From contig CANRBL010000006.1 in the NCBI GenBank assembly GCA_947628835.1, positions 1-50,627 on the forward strand: a stretch of DNA of 50,627 nucleotides. The letters run 5' to 3'. The DNA is from an uncultured Clostridia bacterium. GTDB lineage: Bacteria; Bacillota; Clostridia; TANB77; CAG-508. The notes below the pieces were generated by a model. It was not told where the DNA came from. It saw nothing but the letters and a program-made list of their open reading frames with translations, and ran no database searches. The position numbers and the translations under genes are program-made. Numbering within the stretch: position 1 is the stretch's first letter; each line of letters begins with the position of its first letter. Of this stretch, positions 9,252 to 47,574 are shown one piece after another.

Positions 9252-9722
9252 ATGAGGAATAGAATAAAAGTAAATAAAAAGTCAGAAAAAGGAGTTAGTT
9301 TGTCTGCATTAATGATATATATAATTGCAATGTTAATTGTAATGTCAATTATATCTGTTATAACATCATCATTTTACAATAACATAAATATAATTACAAA
9401 TGAAACTAATTCGCAGAAAGAATATAGTAGATTTAATATGTTTTTTACAAAAGAAGTAAATACAGAAGATACAAAAATTGCTAAAATTGATGAACTAAAC
9501 AGTAGTTATATAATATTTACAAATAAAGAAGAAAAACATCAATATACATTTAAAAATAATGCTATATATATGAATAAAATAAAAATATGTGATAATGTTA
9601 AAGATTGTAAATTTCAAATGTCAAATGAAGATTCTAATATAAAAAATATAACAATACTTTTAAAAATAGGAGAAGATTTTACTAAAACATTAAATTATTC
9701 ATGTTCTGGAAATTTTATGTAA
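9252..9722 (+). CDS. Minor pilin-like protein
   Basis: RBS agggag. The basic leader ...KKSEKG/VSLSALMIYIIAMLIVMSIISV has Ala at +5. Confidence 0.5.
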   Translation: MRNRIKVNKKSEKGVSLSALMIYIIAMLIVMSIISVITSSFYNNINIITNETNSQKEYSRFNMFFTKEVNTEDTKIAKIDELNSSYIIFTNKEEKHQYTFKNNAIYMNKIKICDNVKDCKFQMSNEDSNIKNITILLKIGEDFTKTLNYSCSGNFM

Positions 9723-9808
9723 ATATATAAAAATAAACAAAAATAATAAAATTTATTGTATAATATATATGTACTTATATTTAATTTGTATAGAAAGGAT
9801 TGATACAT

Positions 9809-11446
9809 ATGGAAACAAAAAAAGCAATACCAATGGGAGTTGAATTAGTAAAAAGGGGAATAGTAACACAAGAAGATATAGAAAGAGCATTAGATTATCA
9901 AAGGTTTCATCCAGATAAAAGAATAGGTGATATATTACATTTATTAGAGGTTTGTGATCCTAGTGATTTAATAAAAGCAATAGGAGATATAATTGGAGAA
10001 GAAGGAATATACTTAAAAGCTAATAGCATAAAAGTTCATTTAACAGATTACATATCATTAGAGATGGCAAAAAAACATAAAGCTATTCCATTTGAATTAG
10101 AAACTGGAAAAATAAAAGTTTGTTTTGCAGATACTGCTAAAGGTACAAATAAAGAAAGTATAAAAATGCTAATGTTAAATAAAGGTTTAATAATGGAATC
10201 TTATATTACTTTTGAAAGTGATATAGATAGATTTTTAGCAACAATGGAAAGTACCCAAGTAAACATGTTTAAAGCTGAAGGACAAGCAAATACAATAACA
10301 GGTCTTGTGGATAATTTAATAAGAGGTGGATTTGAAAAAAGAGCTAGTGATATCCATTTTGAACCATTAGAAAATATGTTAAGAGTAAGGTATAGAATAG
10401 ATGGAGAATTGTATACTATAGCAGAAATAGAAAAAGAAAAACAAATGCAAATAATAGGAAGATTAAAAGCAATATCTAATATGCATCAAGAAAAGCAAGA
10501 ATCACAAGATGGTAGAATTTTGATATATGAAGATTATAATATTCGTGTATCATCTCAAAAAAATATATATGGTGAAAAATTTGTTTTAAGGTTGTTAAAA
10601 AAAGATGCAAAGATAAGAAATATACATGAATTGGGCTTGACAAAAACTGATAAAGAAATAAATAAAAGTATTAATAAGAAAAATAGTATTGCTATTGTAG
10701 CAGCACCAACAGGAGAAGGAAAGACAACAACATTATATAGTATAATAGATCATTTAAATAGGCCAGAAGTAAATATTACAACAATAGAAGATCCAGTGGA
10801 AATAAGGATAGGTGGATTAAATCAAATAGAAATAGATGCAAAGACTTCATTTTCAGATTCATTAAGAACGGTATTAAGACAAGATCCAGATATTATATTG
10901 GTAGGTGAAGTTCGTGATAAAGAAACAGCAGAAATTGCAATTCAAGCAGGTCAAACTGGTCACTATGTTTTATCTACAATACATACAATAGATGCAGTAG
11001 AGGTAATAACGAGATTAAGAAAAATGGGAATTTCAGATTATGATATAGCTAGTACTTTGGCAACAACAATTTCACAAAGATTAGTTAGAAGATTATGTCC
11101 ACATTGTAGAAAAGAAAGAGCATTTACAAAAGATGAAAAATTAGTAATGTTGGATATAGCCAAAAAATATAATACTGAAATTAATATTGGTACTGCAAAA
11201 ACTTATACTGCAGTTGGTTGTGAACATTGTAATAATGTTGGATATTTAGAAAGAATAGGAATTTTTGAAATACTAGAAATTACGGATGAGATAAAAGAAT
11301 TAATAATGAATGGAGCATCTAGTATAGAGATAAGAAAATTAGCTTTGACACAAAACTATGAACCACTTGTAATAGATGGAATAAGAAAAGTAATAGATGG
11401 AATTACAACATTGGAGGAATTAAATAAGAAGTTGTTATTTATGTAG
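9809..11446 (+). CDS. pilB: Type IV pilus assembly ATPase PilB (GspE family)
   Basis: RBS gaaagga 9 nt before ATG 9809. Walker A APTGEGKTTT, Walker B DPDIILVGEVRD, His box GHYVLSTIHT, tetra-Cys motif CPHC...CEHC. Confidence 0.9.
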   Translation: METKKAIPMGVELVKRGIVTQEDIERALDYQRFHPDKRIGDILHLLEVCDPSDLIKAIGDIIGEEGIYLKANSIKVHLTDYISLEMAKKHKAIPFELETGKIKVCFADTAKGTNKESIKMLMLNKGLIMESYITFESDIDRFLATMESTQVNMFKAEGQANTITGLVDNLIRGGFEKRASDIHFEPLENMLRVRYRIDGELYTIAEIEKEKQMQIIGRLKAISNMHQEKQESQDGRILIYEDYNIRVSSQKNIYGEKFVLRLLKKDAKIRNIHELGLTKTDKEINKSINKKNSIAIVAAPTGEGKTTTLYSIIDHLNRPEVNITTIEDPVEIRIGGLNQIEIDAKTSFSDSLRTVLRQDPDIILVGEVRDKETAEIAIQAGQTGHYVLSTIHTIDAVEVITRLRKMGISDYDIASTLATTISQRLVRRLCPHCRKERAFTKDEKLVMLDIAKKYNTEINIGTAKTYTAVGCEHCNNVGYLERIGIFEILEITDEIKELIMNGASSIEIRKLALTQNYEPLVIDGIRKVIDGITTLEELNKKLLFM

Positions 11447-11528
11447 ATAATAAAATAATGTAATATAAAAAATTATGTTATTGTTATAGTAAAAGGAATT
11501 AACATATAATGAATGGAGGAAATTTATC

Positions 11529-12623
11529 ATGATAAATATGGATAAGATATTAGATGAGGCAATTGAAAGAGATGCTTCAGATATTCACTTAGTATGTGAT
11601 AATAAACCATTGCTTAGAATAGCAAGAGATTTGGTTGAAATAGAAGAGATGGATATTTTAACACCAGAGGATATGAGTCAAATGTATGATTATTTAGTAA
11701 TGGGAAATTTAGATAAAGATGAAGTATTTAATAAGACTAGAAAATTAGATACCTCATATGAATATAAAGGATTTCGTTTAAGAGTAAATATATCTTTATC
11801 TGATGATATTCCACTTTGTACATTAAGAATAATAAAAAATGATTTACCTAGCTATGAATCTTTAGGAGTTCCAGATATAGTTAGAAGAATGACATACCAA
11901 CCACAGGGATTAATTTTAGTAACAGGAAAAACTAATTCAGGAAAAAGTACTACATTAAATGCATTAGTAAATTATATTAATGAAAATCAAAATAAGAAAA
12001 TTTTGACATTGGAAAACCCAGTAGAATATAAACATCATTCTAAAAAATCTTTAATAGTCCAAAAAGAAATTGGACAAGGTAGAGATAGTTTAACATTTAG
12101 TGATGGAGTAAAAAATTCTTTAAGAGAAGATTGTGATATTTTAGTAATAGGAGAGATTCGTGATAAGGTTACAATGGAAGCTGCTATAGAGATGGCAGAA
12201 TCTGGACACCTTGTTATAGGAACATTACATACAAAGTCGTGTGCAGAAACAATTGATAGAATGATAAACTTTTATGAAGTAAGAGATCAAGCTAGTATAA
12301 AGTACTTATTGTCAGCTTTATTAAAATTGGTTGTTTCTCAGAGATTATTGAAAGGGACAGATGGTAAACTTGTACTTGTACCAGAAGTTATGGTTGTAGA
12401 TAATGTAGTTGCAGGTGTTATTAGAAAAGAAAAAATTAGTGTATCAGAAATAGAAGATGCAATTCAAAGTGGTTCAGATAAAGGTAGTATAGGTTTAATA
12501 AATTCAATTGCAAAAGTGTTTGTTGAAGATAAAATTAGTTTGGAGCAAGCAAAATCACAGATAGAGGAGAAAAATTTAGAAACATTAAATAGAACTATTA
12601 TGCAATTAAGAATAAAGAAATAG
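11529..12623 (+). CDS. pilT: Pilus retraction ATPase PilT
   Basis: ASDIHL N-terminus, Walker A GKTNSGKSTT, Walker B CDILVIGEIRD, His box GHLVIGTLHT. The ~360 aa size is typical of PilT. Confidence 0.88.
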   Translation: MINMDKILDEAIERDASDIHLVCDNKPLLRIARDLVEIEEMDILTPEDMSQMYDYLVMGNLDKDEVFNKTRKLDTSYEYKGFRLRVNISLSDDIPLCTLRIIKNDLPSYESLGVPDIVRRMTYQPQGLILVTGKTNSGKSTTLNALVNYINENQNKKILTLENPVEYKHHSKKSLIVQKEIGQGRDSLTFSDGVKNSLREDCDILVIGEIRDKVTMEAAIEMAESGHLVIGTLHTKSCAETIDRMINFYEVRDQASIKYLLSALLKLVVSQRLLKGTDGKLVLVPEVMVVDNVVAGVIRKEKISVSEIEDAIQSGSDKGSIGLINSIAKVFVEDKISLEQAKSQIEEKNLETLNRTIMQLRIKK

Positions 12624-12692
12624 AGTTATTAGTTAGCCTAATAAAGCATAATAATATTTATTGACTAGTAATGAAATAGAAAGGAGTTCATA

Positions 12693-14054
12693 ATGCCAGT
12701 ATATCATTATAGAGCAATTGCAAAAAATGGAACAGTAATTCGAAATAGAATAGAAGAATCAAGCAAATTAAAACTTATTAGAAAATTAAAATCTAATGGA
12801 TATATTCCTATTTTGGTTGAACAAGTTTCATATAAAGCTAAACAAGTACAAAAGAAAAAAAGAAATATAGATGATTTACATGAAATAATGAAAAATGCCA
12901 ATACTACAAAAATAGGTAAAGATAAAAGAAGAACAATGACTCTAAAGGAAAAAATAAATCTTTCACTTGCAAAAACACAAAAAATTACAACTAAAGATTT
13001 AACTATATTTACACAAAATTTTTATTTGTTAAAAAAAGCAAATTTTAATAATATACACGCATTAAGTACATTAATAGAAGGTACTGAAAATTACATTTTT
13101 AGGGGTATATTAGAAGACATTTTAGCAGGTCTTGAAGCAGGTGAAAATATGTATGTAACTATGGAATATTATTCAAATGTATTTCCATACATATATGTTA
13201 ACATGATAAAAGTAGGAGAATTATCTGGTTCACTTACTACATCTTTAGGACAAGCTGTTGAGTATTTGGAAGATACAGAAAGATTAAATAAAAAATTAAG
13301 AGAAATATTAGTGCCAAATATTGTACAATTTGTATTGTTGCTTTTAATGTTAATTGTTGGAACTATAGTTGCAATTCCAGCAATACAAGATGTTTTTGAG
13401 GAATTGGGTACAAAGGAAACATTACCGCCAGTTACACTTTGGTTCCAAGGTGTTATAAATACATTTATGGCTTATTGGTATATTCCAGTAATTATACTTG
13501 TAGCTATTGCAGGTGTTATTATATCGTATATTAGAACACCTAAAGGTAGATATAATTTTGATTATTTTAAATATACAGCACCAGTTTTTGGAGGTCTTAT
13601 ATTTTCTTTAGATTTTTCAAGATTGATGAAGGCTATGTTATTAAATTTGAATAACGGAATGAGAATTCAAGATGCTTTGACAGTAAGTAAAAATGTTGTT
13701 AAAAATAATGTAATGATATCAATTGTAGAAACATCAATAAATAATATATTGGTTGGTTCTTCATGGATAGAACCATTTGAACAATCAAAATTAGCATCAC
13801 CAATGTCTACTGAAATGTTAAAAATAGGTATGCAGACAGATTTAACAGAAATGATGGGAAAATTAGTTGAATATATGGAAGTTGAAATAAACAATCAGCT
13901 TGCAAAAATAATGAAGGCATTGCCACAAATTGTTTATGCTATTGTTGGTGTAGTATTGATTTTCTTCGTACTTGTAGTACTAGTTCCTTGTATTCAAGTA
14001 TATATGGGAAGTTTCTTATTCTCTTCTTATGGATTAGATGAAACCGATTTATAA
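12693..14054 (+). CDS. pilC: Type IV pilus platform protein PilC (GspF family)
   Basis: RBS aaaggag. Starts MPVYHYRAI..NG. Two GspF-like repeats with three TM segments. Confidence 0.85.
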   Translation: MPVYHYRAIAKNGTVIRNRIEESSKLKLIRKLKSNGYIPILVEQVSYKAKQVQKKKRNIDDLHEIMKNANTTKIGKDKRRTMTLKEKINLSLAKTQKITTKDLTIFTQNFYLLKKANFNNIHALSTLIEGTENYIFRGILEDILAGLEAGENMYVTMEYYSNVFPYIYVNMIKVGELSGSLTTSLGQAVEYLEDTERLNKKLREILVPNIVQFVLLLLMLIVGTIVAIPAIQDVFEELGTKETLPPVTLWFQGVINTFMAYWYIPVIILVAIAGVIISYIRTPKGRYNFDYFKYTAPVFGGLIFSLDFSRLMKAMLLNLNNGMRIQDALTVSKNVVKNNVMISIVETSINNILVGSSWIEPFEQSKLASPMSTEMLKIGMQTDLTEMMGKLVEYMEVEINNQLAKIMKALPQIVYAIVGVVLIFFVLVVLVPCIQVYMGSFLFSSYGLDETDL

Positions 14055-14104: not shown

Positions 14105-14147
14105 TATAATAGGAAATATTGTGAAATTTTAATTTTGTGATTTTAAA

Positions 14148-14327
14148 TGAAATAAAATATTATTTTTTCAAAAATGCTCGTTCAAATAATTTTCACAGAA
14201 TTTCTAAAAAATTTTATGGCACCCTTCCACTTCGCTTCGCTACGTGAACTCTTTCCATAAAATTTTTAAGAATTTCTAGCTTAATTATTTTCAATGCGCT
14301 TTTTTCAAAAATATATATTTTATTTCA
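14148..14327 (+). repeat. Family-B palindromic element (copy 1), ~180 bp
   Basis: Near-identical to 26725-26899. Imperfect inverted arms gaaataaaatattattttttcaaaaa... / ...tttttcaaaaatatatattttatttc surround the core attttatggcacccttccac-ttcgcttcgctac-gtgaactctttccataaaat (14211-14263). Confidence 0.85.
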
Positions 14328-15851: not shown

Positions 15852-16886
15852 TTATCTTTGTTGTGAGTCTTGTTCTTCTTGCATATTATCTGAATTTTTT
15901 ATGTAGTATGGATTTGAATTTTTTATATTATCTATATCAAAATTAAGTTGTTTAATTCTTTCTTCTAAGGCTTGTATTTCTTTTTCATATTCAGAAATTT
16001 TTATTTCGGCTTCTTTGCGATTAGGATTAGGGGACACATTAAAAAATTTATTTGTGAATTCAGTATTTAATTTACCTATACCATATTTTTGAATTTGCTT
16101 TAATATTAGCATTGCTAACTCACTATTTTGCAATATTTCTTTGTGTATTAATTCTTCGGATTTTACATCATGTGGGCAGACTGCAGATGAGAAGTCTAAA
16201 TAAAATGCCAAAAATACATGTTCATCAAAACTATTATGCATAATGTTTTCTAATAAATCATTCATAGAATTGATATTATTTTTTTCAAAAAAATCTTTAA
16301 CTCTATTATTATAACATTGTTTTAAATACAATTCATTTATAGGTAATTCGGCTTTTTCCAATATAGGTTTTAGAAATATTGTGTAATTTTCAATATTATC
16401 CCAACCAATTAATTCTGAGCGTAAAAATTTATATTGTTGTTCCCTTTCCTTATATGTAGTAAAAAATTGCTGTGAATTTTTTTTGGCCCAACCATTATGC
16501 ATATATGATAAAATATCTAAAATAAGGTTATAATATTGTGTCGAATTGGTAGTATAATGTCCAGCATTCCATAATTTATCTGATATTAATTTTTTGTAAA
16601 TTTGATCATTTGCAGAACCATTAAAAATAGAGTCTTTTAATTGTGATATTTCGTTAGAAGTATAAAGACCAAGAGATAAATCCAAAAGTGATTGACTTAT
16701 AGATTTTATAGCATATCTTGTTAAAAATTCAGCATTTACAATATTTTCGATTTCATTGTAGTCAGATTCTTCAATAAATTTTTGGGCTTCTTCTTTAGAG
16801 TATCCATGTATTTTGATTAATAATTCTTTTGCTATTTTATAATATGGTATGTTTTCTTTTGTTTGGTTGTCTGTAATCATATCCAT
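15852..16886 (-). CDS. Hypothetical protein (344 aa) with a C-terminal coiled coil, orphan
   Basis: RBS aaaggaag on the minus strand. Coiled coil EAEIKISEYEKEIQALEERIKQLNFDIDNIK. No catalytic motif recognised. Confidence 0.65.
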   Translation of the reverse strand: MDMITDNQTKENIPYYKIAKELLIKIHGYSKEEAQKFIEESDYNEIENIVNAEFLTRYAIKSISQSLLDLSLGLYTSNEISQLKDSIFNGSANDQIYKKLISDKLWNAGHYTTNSTQYYNLILDILSYMHNGWAKKNSQQFFTTYKEREQQYKFLRSELIGWDNIENYTIFLKPILEKAELPINELYLKQCYNNRVKDFFEKNNINSMNDLLENIMHNSFDEHVFLAFYLDFSSAVCPHDVKSEELIHKEILQNSELAMLILKQIQKYGIGKLNTEFTNKFFNVSPNPNRKEAEIKISEYEKEIQALEERIKQLNFDIDNIKNSNPYYIKNSDNMQEEQDSQQR

Positions 16887-16967: not shown

Positions 16968-16996
16968 ATAATACCATATTCGACATTTGATTTCAA
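16968..16996 (-). promoter_or_regulatory. Sigma-A-type promoter of the minus-strand islet with a Spo0A-box-like heptamer in the spacer
   Basis: On the minus strand: ttgaaa (16996-16991), 17-nt spacer, tattat (16973-16968). The spacer contains tgtcgaa (+ strand ttcgaca, 16979-16985). The -35 lies inside the repeat fragment 16991-17037. Confidence 0.45.
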
Positions 16997-17037
16997 TGCT
17001 TTTAAAACATTTTTATATAAAACCATTAACCTGTAAC
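16991..17037 (+). repeat. End fragment of a family-A element
   Basis: tttcaatgcttttaaaacatttttatataaaaccattaacctgtaac. With the start of the next copy it forms a perfect 19-bp hairpin (aaaaccattaacctgtaac ctttttt gttacaggttaatggtttt). Confidence 0.75.
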
Positions 17038-17044
17038 CTTTTTT

Positions 17045-17389
17045 GTTACAGGTTAATGGTTTTAAAAGGATAAATTTCTAAAAGCATAGAAATATAAAAT
17101 TTTCATTACATTCCTCGGCTCATTACAAAGCTTAAGAAATTCTAACTTATTTTATGGCACCCTTTCACTCAACGCGAACTATTTCCATAAAATTGCGTAG
17201 AATTTCTAAAGCTTTTCCAAGTTCTAGACAATTGCGTGCAATTGTCGTAGAAATTGGTTATGCGAAAATTAGATTTTCTTATGGCAAAGCCATATAGAAA
17301 ATCTTAATTTCGTTTTTCCAATCACATTCGTCATTTCATTCAAATTCTTATATTTCTATGCTTTTTATATAAAACTATTAACTTGTAAC
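17045..17389 (+). repeat. Family-A modular palindromic element carrying a nested insertion (MITE-like)
   Basis: Starts gttacaggttaatggtttt and ends aaaactattaacttgtaac. Collinear with 21901-22155 except for extra DNA at 17221-17321. Confidence 0.85.
17221..17321 (+). mobile_element. Nested ~93-bp hairpin-module insertion with an 8-bp duplication
   Basis: ttttccaa at 17213-17220 is repeated at 17314-17321. Uninterrupted copies read aaagcttttccaatca. The insert holds two hairpins: ctagacaattgc/gcaattgtcgtag, and cgaaaattagattttcttatggc/gccatatagaaaatcttaatttcg. Confidence 0.7.
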
Positions 17390-21600: not shown

Positions 21601-21885
21601 AAATTTTTAAAGGAAAAAGGCTTAAATGTGAAAGCTGTTCCTAAAATTTGGGAGGGGACAGATAGTATAATAGATTTAATTCAATCAGGAAAACTAAGCT
21701 TTATCATAAATACTCCAACTAAAGGAAAAGAATCAAATAGGGACGGATTTAAAATAAGAAGAATGGCTGTTGAGTGTAAAGTGCCTTGTTTTACAGCTTT
21801 AGATACTGTACAAGCTTTATATGAGGCTATAAAAAATGGTGTTAAAGAACAAGATTTAACTCCTGTAGATATAACTGTAATCTAA
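18685..21885 (+). CDS. carB: Carbamoyl-phosphate synthase large subunit
   Basis: 1066 aa with duplicated ATP-grasp halves ([17 protein letters not shown] and [15 protein letters not shown]) and an MGS-like C-terminal domain. Confidence 0.97.
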
Positions 21886-21900
21886 AATATAAAAAATATA

Positions 21901-22155
21901 GTTACAGGTTAATGGTTTTAAAAGGATAAATTTCTAAAAACATAGAAATATAAGATTTTCATTACATTCCTCGGTTCATTACAAAGCTTAAGAAATTCTA
22001 ACTTATTTTATGGCACCCTTTCACTCAACGCGAACTATTTCCATAAAATTGCGTAGAATTTCTAAAGCTTTTCCAATCATATTCGTCATTTTATTCAAAT
22101 TCTTATATTTCTATGCTTTTATAACTATTTTTATATAAAACCATTAACCAGTAAC
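21901..22155 (+). repeat. Family-A modular palindromic element, cleanest full copy (255 bp)
   Basis: TIRs gttacaggttaatggtttt / aaaaccattaaccagtaac. Central core ttatggcaccctttcactcaacgcgaactatttccataa. Flanked by aaaatata on both sides (21893-21900 and 22156-22163). Confidence 0.9.
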
Positions 22156-22184
22156 AAAATATAATATAAAATATAAAAAAATGC

Positions 22185-22213
22185 TTGCAAACGATAAAAA
22201 AATGTGTTAAAAT
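22185..22213 (+). promoter_or_regulatory. Sigma-A-type promoter of the rpsF-ssb-rpsR operon
   Basis: ttgcaa, 17-nt spacer ending in tgt (extended -10), taaaat. Confidence 0.55.
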
Positions 22214-22297
22214 AGCAATGTTCAAAACAAATATAAAAATATTTGTTTCTCTACTTAATGAAAAATTAAGTTATATATCCAAAGGGAGGTGAAAATA

Positions 22298-26682: not shown

Positions 26683-26724
26683 ATTTTTTTATACTCTAGG
26701 AAACTTTAAGTTTGCAAATTTAAG

Positions 26725-26899
26725 TGAAATAAAATATTATTTTTTCAAAAATGCTCGTTCAAATAATTTTCACAGAACTTCTAAAAAAATTTTATGGCAC
26801 CCTTCCACGACAAGCGTGAACTCTTTCCATAAAATTTTTTAGAAGTTCTAGCTCAATTATTTTCAATGCGCTTTTTTCAAAAATATATATTTTATTTCA
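26725..26899 (+). repeat. Family-B palindromic element (copy 2)
   Basis: Collinear with 14148-14327. Core ttttatggcacccttccac-gacaagc-gtgaactctttccataaaat. Confidence 0.85.
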
Positions 26900-27129
26900 A
26901 AAGAAGAAATATGAAATTTTTTAGCTTTTTAGTACAAAGTGAAATAAAAAATATAGTTTTTTTAAAAGCATTGAAACAGTAAGTATTACTGTTAAGCCAC
27001 AAAATATAAATTATTTAGCAATATAAAAATGGAAAAAATTTCCATTTTACTATTGCATTTTTTATAAAGTAATAATATAATACAAATTGTAAAAAATTTA
27101 TAAAAAATATATTTTAGGAGGAAAAAAGC

Positions 27130-31508: not shown

Positions 31509-32561
31509 ATGAAGAAAAAAAGTATCTTTTTGTCATTAATAATTGTTCTGTTAGGGGCTTTAGTGCTAGTTTGTCGGCAGATGACAGGAGTTTCAGAAGA
31601 AAACGCATCAGAGGAATCAGTCGTTTCAGAAGAAAACGCATCAGAGCAGTCAGCGGTTTCAGAAGAAAATGCAACAAAGGAATCCAAGGTTGCAAAAAAA
31701 TTACCGAGAGATTCGAAAGTTTTCTTGAGTTACACAAAAAATTATAAAGTATATCGAAAGAAAAACACTTTCTTTTTCTGCTATAAAGAGAAGGTGTTGG
31801 ATAAAGTGAAACTAGAAGAAAAAATTATTAGCAATAAGGCCTATACATATGAGCCTTACTGCTATTCATCGGCAGGAAGCCTATATATGATTCAGTCAGT
31901 ACCAAAACCACCTAAACTGGATTTTATAAAGGTTGCCGAAGGAGTAGATATTGTGGGAAACATTGATTACTTTTATGTAAAGGAAGATGATTCATATATT
32001 AAAGGTCTTCCTGTGTGCTATAATGAAAAAGAGAAAATATATTTTTTCATTAAGCCACAATCCAGCAAGGCATATTCAGAATATGCAGAATGGTGGGTTG
32101 AAGAAAAAGGGACACAATATGATAACAGATTTCTCTCAATCGAATTTGACATTAATAATATTTTGGTCAAATTTGATACGCATAATGACAGACTTCATTG
32201 GGAACCATCTTGCTTTTTGTCTTATAAAGGCAAAAAAGTTGAAATAGAGGATTTCCCTAGTAATTGGCTAGAAATTTCCAATAATTTTCTGAACGAAATA
32301 ATTTCTGATACAGATAAAAAGGCATATAAAATTTTATCTGGATATAAGAAATATGTTCCGTATCAGAAATCTGGTCAGCATATGAAAAATATCCAAAATT
32401 TTTTGAATCGGTGGGAGAAAAAAAACACTAAGAAGATTATAAAATTTTACGAAAAGGATCCCTATGAACTCAAAAGCGATTGGGATTTGAAGAACGGCGT
32501 GAGAAAATGGTGTAAAAAGCACCCAAAAGCACTTAAGAAGCTAGTAACCACAATGGGGTAG
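31509..32561 (+). CDS. Secreted or membrane-anchored orphan protein with an 11-aa x3 repeat
   Basis: RBS aggagg 7 nt before ATG 31509. Signal-anchor KKKSIFLSLIIVLLGALVLVC, then VSEENASEESV VSEENASEQSA VSEENATKESK. Visibly higher G+C than neighbouring genes. Confidence 0.7.
   Translation: MKKKSIFLSLIIVLLGALVLVCRQMTGVSEENASEESVVSEENASEQSAVSEENATKESKVAKKLPRDSKVFLSYTKNYKVYRKKNTFFFCYKEKVLDKVKLEEKIISNKAYTYEPYCYSSAGSLYMIQSVPKPPKLDFIKVAEGVDIVGNIDYFYVKEDDSYIKGLPVCYNEKEKIYFFIKPQSSKAYSEYAEWWVEEKGTQYDNRFLSIEFDINNILVKFDTHNDRLHWEPSCFLSYKGKKVEIEDFPSNWLEISNNFLNEIISDTDKKAYKILSGYKKYVPYQKSGQHMKNIQNFLNRWEKKNTKKIIKFYEKDPYELKSDWDLKNGVRKWCKKHPKALKKLVTTMG
31590..31688 (+). repeat. 33-bp x3 in-frame tandem repeat
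   Basis: gtttcagaagaaaacgcatcagaggaatcagtc / gtttcagaagaaaacgcatcagagcagtcagcg / gtttcagaagaaaatgcaacaaaggaatccaag. Confidence 0.9.
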
Positions 32562-32800
32562 TACTTTTTAAATGAATATGAAGAAGATTAAGGAGAGTAA
32601 AAATTTATCACATCTTTGCAAGGAGTCTGCTGTAAAAAGCAGGCTTTTTGTATTATTATCATTATGAATATATCAATTAAATAGGAAGAAACAATCCATA
32701 TCAAGATGGACATAATTTAGTAGTAATTAAAAAGTAAAAAAACAAAAAAATGCTTTAAGTATGTTTTCCAGAAACTTGCAGGCAAATTTATGAAAACTGT

Positions 32801-33055
32801 GTTACAAGTTAATGGTTTTATATAAAAATAGTTATAAAAGCATAGAAATATAAGAATTTGAATGAAATGACGAATGTGATTGGAAAAGCTTTAGAAATTC
32901 TATGCAATTTTATGGAAATAGTTCGCGTTGAGTGAAAGGGTGCCATAAAATAAGTTAGAATTTCTTAAGCTTTGTAATGAGCCGAGGAATGTAATGAAAA
33001 TCTTATATTTCTATGCTTTTAGAAATTTATCCTTTTAAAACCATTAACCTGTAAC
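32801..33055 (-). repeat. Family-A modular palindromic element, full copy in inverted orientation
   Basis: gttacaagttaatggtttt ... aaaaccattaacctgtaac. Reverse complement is collinear with 21901-22155. Confidence 0.9.
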
Positions 33056-33083
33056 TGTTCAATTATTTTAAATAAAACCAATA

Positions 33084-33124
33084 TTGACAAAAATAAATAA
33101 ATTTAATATAATACACTGTGTCGA
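33084..33124 (+). promoter_or_regulatory. Consensus sigma-A promoter of ppaC with a downstream Spo0A-box-like heptamer
   Basis: ttgaca (33084-33089), 17 nt, tataat (33107-33112). tgtcgaa at 33118-33124. Confidence 0.5.
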
Positions 33125-47322: not shown

Positions 47323-47376
47323 AAATAATTTATCAAAATTTATTATGTTTTATAACAATTGAATAGTTATTGGAAA

Positions 47377-47465
47377 GTTACAAGTTAATAGTTTTATATA
47401 AAAATAGTTTTAAAAGCATTGAAATATAAGATTTGCATTGAAATTCTTATATTTCAATGCTTTTT
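47377..47465 (+). repeat. Half-element of family A (terminal module plus one hairpin module)
   Basis: gttacaagttaatagttttatataaaaatagtt followed by hairpin aaaagcattgaaatataaga / tcttatatttcaatgctttt. Confidence 0.75.
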
Positions 47466-47503
47466 AGATTATATAGCGAAGAAACCATTATAATGACTAT
47501 TGG

Positions 47504-47574
47504 AAAAAATTGGAAACAAAAAGCAATTGAAAAATGGTGCTAAAAATGGTATAATATAAGATATAAAGTAAAAA
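47504..47574 (+). repeat. Direct repeat DR2 (partner at 46912-46967)
   Basis: See DR1. Includes the promoter of the ChW gene. Confidence 0.6.
47527..47555 (+). promoter_or_regulatory. Sigma-A-type promoter with extended -10
   Basis: ttgaaa, 17 nt ending in tgg, tataat. Confidence 0.55.

Follow-up and report, generated by a model that had tools for sequence, protein, structure and literature searches.

The window analyzed here, 50,627 nucleotides of contig CANRBL010000006.1 from an uncultured Clostridia bacterium (assembly GCA_947628835.1), carries six copies or fragments of a short intergenic repeat, family A, of which the 255-bp copy at positions 21901 to 22155 serves as reference. This family and its relatives in other gut Clostridia are very probably miniature inverted-repeat transposable elements (MITEs) that duplicate 8 bp of target DNA upon insertion and are targeted to promoters, with one end of the element 28 to 29 nt upstream of the predicted −35 box. 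What is new is the exact promoter-upstream targeting by gene-less elements, at a distance unlike that published; among the bacterial systems so far described, such targeting is otherwise known only from mobile elements of the TnGBS/ISLre2 type.

Element ends keep a fixed distance to predicted promoters

We compared 150 unique element ends that had at least 100 nt of outward flank with 43,600 random positions in the same DNA. A strictly defined sigma-70-type promoter (TTGACA and TATAAT, at most 2 mismatches in 12) was present within 100 nt of 34 of the 150 ends, versus 2.9% of the random positions. Its −35 box started 28 or 29 nt from the element in 27 of these 34 promoter-bearing ends, versus 4.4% of the promoter-bearing controls, from which only 0.19 such ends would be expected. 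When up to 3 mismatches were allowed, the −35 box began 28 nt from 23 independent ends, 29 nt from 17, and 30 nt from 1 (41 in all), with a spacer of 17 nt in nearly all 41 promoters. No element examined had such a promoter on both sides. Within the window, four of five sites show the 28- to 29-nt spacing, and a promoter-scanning tool also calls the promoters at 22185-22213 and 33084-33112 (Table 1).

The duplicated 8-mer sits between the terminal repeat and the promoter, which places the promoter outside the element. A related metagenome-assembled genome (MAG; L225 versus L223) has the same promoter without an element, and the rpsF promoter is also found in a 98%-identical lineage that has only a degenerate repeat remnant in place of the full element (L078). 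As judged from these sequences, the targeted promoters belong to the host. The 28 to 29 nt between element end and −35 box are not conserved and share only phased A/T tracts typical of UP elements, so that the fixed feature is the distance to the promoter and not a target sequence. A special, UP-rich character of the targeted promoters was considered and rejected, since control promoters without elements have the same phased A/T pattern. With the −35 box taken as −35 to −30, the last base of the element would lie at about −64/−65, just outside the UP-element region.

Both orientations are used. The copies at 21901 and 32801 are opposite and face their promoters with opposite ends. A multicopy element from rabbit gut has two different subterminal sequences, A and B, and a promoter lies 28 to 29 nt from 4 of its 8 A ends and from 4 of its 6 B ends. 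An earlier note on this DNA had described the copies as intergenic and located at operon boundaries. The open reading frame (ORF) map agrees for all family A copies, and the register supplies the reason that had been missed, namely, that the ends lie 28 to 29 nt upstream of the −35 box of the downstream unit; insertion fixed to promoters would therefore produce the operon boundary pattern.

A shared terminal repeat bounds unrelated interiors and is flanked by 8-bp duplications

The terminal inverted repeat, GTTACNNGTTAATGGTTTTA, is 19 to 20 bp long, pairs with its own complement, and has the outer end ...GTAAC. Used as a query against one genome per prokaryotic species, it returned 76 loci, about 46 of which are in MAGs of uncultured Clostridia from rabbit, rumen, goat, mouse, and other guts; the others are single chance matches in unrelated taxa. 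The Clostridia loci have the same 19- to 20-bp repeat around wholly unrelated interiors. Elements elsewhere were defined by pairing inward-facing repeats 50 to 450 bp apart, which gave lengths of 68 to 301 bp with two doubtful pairings set aside, within the limit of about 600 bp usual for MITEs. Perfect 8-bp target duplications flank 13 elements, about six more have one mismatch, and two have 9 bp. The duplicated 8-mers are varied (CATTTTTT, AACCATAG, CTATTATA, ATGTTTTT, ATTAACTC, AAATTAAA, TGTGAATT, ACACCTTT, CCTTTTTT, TATTATTT, CTATAAAT, and others).

Since the 8-bp rule holds in 13 same-repeat elements elsewhere, all with perfect and nontrivial duplications, the AAAATATA flanks of the reference copy are to be read as a genuine target duplication, as had been proposed with reservation. 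The earlier description of a nonautonomous, MITE-like family with terminal inverted repeats is likewise upheld by repeats and 8-bp duplications in about 20 independent elements from other genomes. Because the shared terminal repeat bounds unrelated interiors and 13 duplications are perfect, sequence comparison identifies these elements as true MITEs, i.e., gene-less DNA transposons, and not artifacts.

Gut metagenome contigs add further members, including some from the human gut, where a 255-bp element (L126, L158) has the architecture of the window copies. Contigs of a 99.7 to 100% identical strain from other ENA samples end inside the element (L079, L082), as is expected of a multicopy repeat. 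The 255-bp element had no match in the plasmid or phage collections; BLAST against the plasmid collection also gave no real match to the ends of the rabbit-gut (Lapin) A/B element, only chance AT-rich hits, and the GTTACNNGTTAATGGTTTTA-type repeat had no exact match in IMG/VR (0 viral loci). Rfam returned no match at the gathering score for the whole window and none at E ≤ 1 for positions 21850-22250, which agrees with the previous failure to recognize a named repeat or RNA family.

Presence/absence differences between close relatives were found at two places, neither of which is a clean empty site. One is the site without an element in the related MAG mentioned above. The other lies between carB and rpsF, where in the 98%-identical sister lineage a 2.1-kb block replaces the MITE (L078 718-2870; also L077, L080, and L081). 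This block contains two minus-strand genes without Pfam hits, for products of 333 amino acids (aa) and 239 aa, the latter secreted-looking with an HELEHH motif. A degenerate repeat-like remnant (CACATTAATCAGTAA) remains there about 18 to 19 nt upstream of the rpsF −35 box.

Adjacent elements can also meet end to end across 7 nt (window 17038-17044, L006 7949-7955, L028 2214-2220). In the window and L028 junctions, the flanks of the second element are not direct repeats but are reverse complementary to each other. Such junctions could reflect reinsertion at one promoter-defined target with a displacement of 1 nt, or they could derive from circles or tandem dimers.

Copies in the window and their modular anatomy

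A repeat finder recovered all six family A copies or fragments that had been listed for the window, with element lengths of 121 to 255 bp (Table 1). No ORF of at least 50 aa lies inside them. Positions 21900-22156 and 32800-33056 are 97% reverse-complementary across 257 nt, and 17045-17220 is 98 to 99% identical to both of these clean copies. The stretch 47377-47465, previously called a half-element, turned out to be part of a complete 121-bp element that reaches 47497; its right repeat is degenerate (...AAACCATTATAATGAC), and a 9-bp direct repeat, TATTGGAAA, flanks it at 47368-47376 and 47498-47506.

Table 1. Positions of repeat elements, their parts, and predicted promoters in the window
Feature	Position	Strand	Remarks
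Full 255-bp MITE, reference copy	21901-22155	+	
Left repeat of reference copy	21901-21919		
Module M1 of reference copy	21936-21955		Inverted partner 22100-22120
Module M2 of reference copy	21983-22000		Partner 22054-22071
TTTTATGG and CCATAAAA in reference copy	22006-22013 and 22041-22048		
Conserved loop of reference copy	22014-22040		
Right repeat of reference copy	22137-22155		
Target-site duplication AAAATATA, 8 bp	21893-21900 (left), 22156-22163 (right)		
rpsF promoter (predicted)	22185-22213	+	TTGCAA, 17-nt spacer, TG-extended TAAAAT; −35 begins 29 nt after 22155
Full 255-bp MITE, inverted	32801-33055	−	Repeats 32801-32819 and 33037-33055
DHH-family gene promoter (predicted)	33084-33112	+	TTGACA, 17-nt spacer, TATAAT, 12/12 consensus; −35 begins 28 nt after 33055
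Full copy with nested 93-bp insert	17045-17389	+	Repeats 17045-17063 and 17371-17389
Nested insert, 93 bp	17221-17313	+	Direct repeat TTTTCCAA (8 bp) at 17213-17220 and 17314-17321
Right-end fragment of older copy	16991-17037	+	7-nt spacer CTTTTTT (17038-17044) to next copy, a repeat-to-repeat junction
Copy cut at window edge	1-122	−	Right-type terminus, left-type inner arm
Predicted promoter beside copy 1-122	152-157 (TTTACA), 175-180 (TAAAAT)		17-nt spacer; 29 nt after element end 122
Complete short member, 121 bp	47377-47497	+	Terminal repeats and module M1 only
Predicted promoter beside short member	47527-47532 (TTGAAA), 47550-47555 (TATAAT)		17-nt spacer; 29 nt after element end 47497
Family B element 1	14120-14326	+	Ends differ from family A; left boundary uncertain
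Family B element 2	26700-26899	+	Upstream of spo0A

Single-strand folding of the 255-nt element predicts one long imperfect palindrome or hairpin, with −70.5 kcal/mol on the plus strand and −83.1 kcal/mol on the minus strand (z −11.9 and −10.9; 0 of 200 shuffles equal). The layout runs from the 19-bp repeat through a variable 16 bp, M1 (AAAAACATAGAAATATAAGA), a conserved unpaired stretch of 27 nt, M2 (AAAGCTTAAGAAATTCTA), and TTTTATGG to a G+C-richer loop of 27 nt, followed by the mirror image. In the right repeat, the variable positions read aac(c/t)(a/t)gtaac and not the (c/a)(t/a) given earlier. Between the window copies and the human-gut copies (L126/L158), the core is about 90% identical and more conserved than the subterminal region, and 11 of 75 predicted hairpin pairs have changed on both sides yet remain paired. 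With two lineages compared, this is only a hint that selection or arm-to-arm correction preserves the palindrome. A 21-codon frame in the core was discounted as a protein-coding gene, since on reading the sequences by eye the changes relative to the L158 copy are mostly nonsynonymous and include an indel.

Modules recur in other combinations. The copy at 1-122 combines a terminus of the right type with an inner arm of the left type, as the earlier note had recognized, and the switch falls inside the inverted module AAAGCATAGAAATATAAGA, which is M1; this is the outcome that inversion between two inverted M1 modules would be expected to give. The nested insert of copy 17045-17389, also seen before, can now be delimited to 93 bp by its flanking 8-bp TTTTCCAA. 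It is single-copy within the window, contains two small perfect hairpins (GACAATTGC/GCAATTGTC and AGATTTTCT...AGAAAATCT) and no family A-type terminal repeat, and may be another tiny mobile element. The two family B copies are 91 to 95% identical to each other and have the central M2/M3 core (TTTTATGGCACCCTTCCAC...GTGAACTCTTTCCATAAAA) in common with family A. TAGGAAAT is present on both sides of the copy at 14120-14326; TAGGAAAC also precedes the copy at 26700-26899, so that the left boundary is uncertain. A remnant of the family A M1 module follows the latter copy at about 26964-26985, upstream of spo0A. The same central core also occurs in a MITE from another MAG (L041 4310-4556) that has different ends, GTAACTATTCAG and CTGAATAGTTAC, and lies upstream of a TTGACA...TATAAT promoter with its end 29 nt away.

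The modular structure is best read as small elements nested in one another or recombined, because the M2/TTTTATGG core is shared by elements with other ends and the 93-bp insert, flanked by an 8-bp duplication of its own, shows such nesting directly. Of the module shuffling suggested earlier, the variants are thus real, and the process is better described as nested insertion plus inversion between internal inverted modules.

Some further sequences touch on these modules. A motif similar to the L041 ends, TGAATAGTTA, lies just left of window copy 47377. The interiors of many same-repeat elements from other MAGs (L009, L015, L035, L038, L040, L048, and L212) share a cassette, the G+C-rich hairpin module GTAGGGGCGA(N4-8)TCGCCC(G). 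On the minus strand around 16991-17000, the M1 module of the end fragment (GCATTGAAAT) provides a TTGAAA with a TATTAT 17 nt off in host DNA; this promoter-like site points at the minus-strand gene 15852-16886 and may be a hybrid promoter.

Candidates for the mobilizing transposase

In agreement with the earlier note, the window has no transposase gene: Pfam finds no transposase domain in any window ORF, and tblastn with ISLre2 transposases finds no match. Repeat pairs 1.5 to 5 kb apart were considered as autonomous elements and rejected, those at L002 and L023 holding ordinary genes. At L116 (427-2440), the repeats are 2 kb apart and enclose only a gene for a prepilin-like/FGE-like protein, and this locus is either a cargo-carrying element or two separate ends. 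L108 and L148 were also dismissed as autonomous elements, being unrelated or separate small elements. The ORFs beside solo repeats in the genome and metagenome loci are housekeeping genes (recG, prfA, gatB, hisS, pflB-like), and none looked transposase-like when the translations were read by eye with no family search. Contigs bearing the rabbit-gut A/B element stop 76 nt inside it, and look-ups via its flanking response-regulator gene returned the same broken contig or relatives without the element.

Two copies from the ISLre2 family of insertion sequences (ISs) lie next to elements. At L052, the start of an ISLre2-family transposase pseudogene (NCBIfam NF033529, E 6.6e-49) is 320 bp inside a solo repeat, and at L051, a remnant found by tblastn begins 13 nt from the element end. 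An intact relative of 1851 bp (L091/L092 2378-4228), encoding a 512-aa transposase, has its own imperfect inverted repeats of about 25 bp, GTTAGTGTAAAATTTTAGTTGGCAA and GTATGTGTCAAGTGATAGTTGGCAA, and a 9-bp duplication, TTCCATTGT. The same ISLre2 end lies about 230 bp inside from the MITE-type repeat at L052, and the two kinds of repeat do not align beyond the first four bases. In view of these separate ends and the 9-bp duplication, the ISLre2 copies were rejected as partners. They are more simply neighbors that target the same promoters, and if both kinds of element do so, their co-location is to be expected.

Two observations concern the surroundings of these insertions. An ISLre2 version split by a frameshift into 343 and 165 aa occupies one fixed locus between hisS and spoIIP (L099-L102 2386-4173), and its 343-aa product occurs in 448 blocks of the collection (P0009); this may be either a conserved frameshift or a fixed pseudogene of a widespread species. 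In addition, genes with a prepilin-type N terminus (GITLIALV...) recur beside the MITEs and ISLre2 copies (L116 427-2440, L052 434-2314, L068, and L099-L102 4121-5404), the L116 protein having a C-terminal FGE-sulfatase-like motif.

Comparison with known systems

Classical bacterial MITEs include Correia/NEMIS of Neisseria, RUP of Streptococcus pneumoniae, Nezha, and MITEs derived from IS630, IS1, and IS5. The elements described here resemble them in being small, AT-rich, noncoding, multicopy, and intergenic, with terminal inverted repeats, target duplications, long hairpins, and nesting. Classical MITEs use short sequence targets such as TA and keep no fixed register to promoters, whereas here the target sequence is unconserved and the distance to the −35 box is fixed. 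In strategy, they work like Ty3 and the Dictyostelium elements TRE5 and DGLT-A, which are eukaryotic retroelements directed to Pol III genes by way of TFIIIB/C. The likeness lies in position-specific integration beside a transcription initiation complex as a safe haven; enzymes and hosts are unrelated.

The nearest bacterial counterparts are the prokaryotic Mutator-like DDE transposons, which comprise the TnGBS integrative and conjugative elements and ISLre2 ISs (p-MULT 3) and the ISKra4 group (p-MULT 4) (Guerillot et al. 2014, PMC3942029; Brochet et al. 2009 cited there). They insert 15 to 17 bp (peak 16) upstream of the −35 box of sigma-A promoters, have inverted repeats of 18 to 39 bp with a terminal C, generate 8- to 9-bp duplications, and form circular intermediates in which the repeats are 6 to 10 bp apart (PMC3942029). 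Members with symmetric repeats, e.g., ISLbu1 and the ISKra4 group, insert both ways, and by analogy to Ty3 the transposase has been proposed to touch the RNA polymerase initiation complex (PMC3942029). The transposases of this group bear a promoter-targeting signature located between domains N1 and N2 (PMC3942029). The elements studied here share with these transposons the fixed distance upstream of a sigma-A −35 box, duplications of 8 and sometimes 9 bp, repeats (19 to 20 bp) that end in C (...GTAAC), and mainly Firmicutes hosts. Their near-identical repeats and use of both orientations match the symmetric-repeat p-MULT elements. The 7-nt genomic junctions would fit the spacing in circles, although repeated insertion at one target could also yield them. 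They differ in the distance between end and −35 box (28 to 29 nt versus 15 to 17 nt), in being gene-less and 68 to 300 bp long, and in having no identified cognate transposase. Their repeat had no match in the part of the PMC3942029 supplementary tables consulted, and the literature searched yielded no MITE derivatives of TnGBS, ISLre2, or ISKra4.

A proposed model for promoter-fixed transposition

We propose that a DDE transposase supplied in trans would bind the 19- to 20-bp terminal repeats, with the terminal C on the transferred strand, and integrate the element by an 8-bp, occasionally 9-bp, staggered cut. The transposition complex may dock on RNA polymerase or on the sigma-A promoter itself, which would place the element end 28 to 29 nt upstream of the −35 box, at about −64/−65 from the transcription start. 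Either orientation occurs because the two repeats are nearly identical. Insertions would fall downstream of one transcription unit and ahead of the next promoter, a presumably harmless spot that leaves the promoter intact. Repeated hits on one promoter would stack elements head to tail, with older copies moving upstream and decaying, and nested insertions plus inversion between internal inverted modules would generate the modular variants.

The likeliest mobilizing enzyme would be a Mutator-like transposase of the TnGBS/ISLre2/ISKra4 kind with its docking geometry shifted by 12 to 13 bp. We lean only slightly toward this assignment, which is drawn from DNA-level features. A more tentative proposal is a promoter-docking system as yet undescribed, in which a transposase, possibly of a new lineage, or an accessory protein would recognize the sigma-A holoenzyme/promoter complex in another geometry and direct insertion to −64/−65, one helical turn plus 2 to 3 bp beyond the site of TnGBS/ISLre2. 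The conserved, compensated hairpin and the shared core might additionally serve, after co-option, as insulators or terminators at the borders of transcription units in these very AT-rich genomes.

Several points weigh against promoter-targeted MITEs as the full explanation. An autonomous partner with the same ends was absent from the 76 genome loci, at least 120 metagenome loci, and 0 viral loci, and absence from samples is not absence in nature. The promoters are sequence predictions, not mapped starts, and none of the window copies yielded a clean empty site. The distance of 28 to 29 nt, against the published 15 to 17 nt, leaves room for a different enzyme family, and the 11 two-sided pair changes hint at a structural constraint that a simple picture of neutral MITEs does not explain.

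The same pair changes would suit an unlikely alternative in which the repeats are host regulatory or structural modules held at about −65 by selection. The terminal 19 bp might then bind an activator or a nucleoid protein, or the long hairpin might serve to terminate or insulate transcription between operons. The constant position relative to promoters, the very stable long hairpin, and a central core that is better conserved than the subterminal region and common to families with other ends all favor such modules, as does the lack of a terminator of carB's own before the element. They would leave unexplained the perfect 8-bp duplications directly flanking the repeats and the conserved ends around interiors that are unrelated between genomes; a 2-nt-wide peak 140-fold over expectation could hardly arise from random insertion plus selection, and no intrinsic terminator-like site is predicted in the element. 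Exaptation after targeted insertion is possible. It is much less probable that the elements are direct deletion derivatives mobilized by the adjoining ISLre2-family ISs. The NF033529 transposase inside the solo repeat at L052, the remnant 13 nt from the L051 element, and the published promoter targeting of ISLre2 (PMC3942029) invite this view. Its weakness lies in the distinct ends and 9-bp duplication of the intact relative, the offset of about 230 bp at L052, and repeats that cannot be aligned past four bases, and the proximity would be expected anyway if both target the same promoters.

Hardly more than a marginal chance is left for the view that the elements are IS200/IS605-type palindromes or REP/BIME-like repeats, whose movement or maintenance would depend on a single-strand Y1 (HUH) transposase with hairpins and a TTAC-like target as its recognition sites. 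In its favor, the element folds as a hairpin over its whole length, its ends contain TTAC/GTAA, and TTAC is the target tetranucleotide of IS608. IS200/IS605 and REP elements, however, have neither terminal inverted repeats nor target duplications, whereas here repeats of 19 to 20 bp and 8-bp duplications are the rule, and transposition extends to elements of 68 to 90 bp whose interior has almost no hairpin (L030, L031, and L047). As to an assembly artifact or a duplication specific to this contig, short-read contigs do often break inside the elements (L079, L082, and 14 contig ends of the Lapin-010 bin8 MAG). Such breaks are what multicopy repeats cause, and many independent assemblies and studies contain copies that differ in their flanks, mutations, and duplications. 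The concern of the earlier note that the copies might be confined to this contig is thereby removed, and an artifactual origin has a negligible probability.

Implications and other features of the window

Promoter targeting in bacteria is known from one element group, and its mechanism is unsolved. Promoter-targeted MITEs would add a second, small, and abundant substrate at another distance and thus a natural comparison, which may reveal what is measured: the −35 box, the UP element and the C-terminal domain of the RNA polymerase alpha subunit (alpha-CTD), or bent DNA. In uncultured AT-rich gut Clostridia, where promoter prediction is hard, the elements would mark sigma-A promoters with near single-base precision, and they account for frequent contig breaks in MAGs of these bacteria. 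As a candidate application, they could serve in tools for safe-haven insertion. Any action of the hairpins on transcription would make the elements a widespread layer of operon insulation.

The window has a G+C content of about 25%. Its genes include those for Spo0A and ChW-repeat proteins, a type IV pilus cluster, carAB, and rpsF-ssb-rpsR, so the source organism is an endospore-forming, Clostridium-like bacterium. Two further sets of repeats are coding. ChW (clostridial hydrophobic W) repeats of a 621-aa protein are found at 47710-48209, and 33-bp tandem repeats at 31585-31700 encode SEENA-type motifs in a 352-aa protein. The type IV pilus/type II secretion system (T2SS)-like cluster (4314-14054) comprises a prepilin peptidase, two T2SSE ATPases, T2SSF, a PilN-like gene, and several small ORFs without Pfam hits, and it ends at a family B element.

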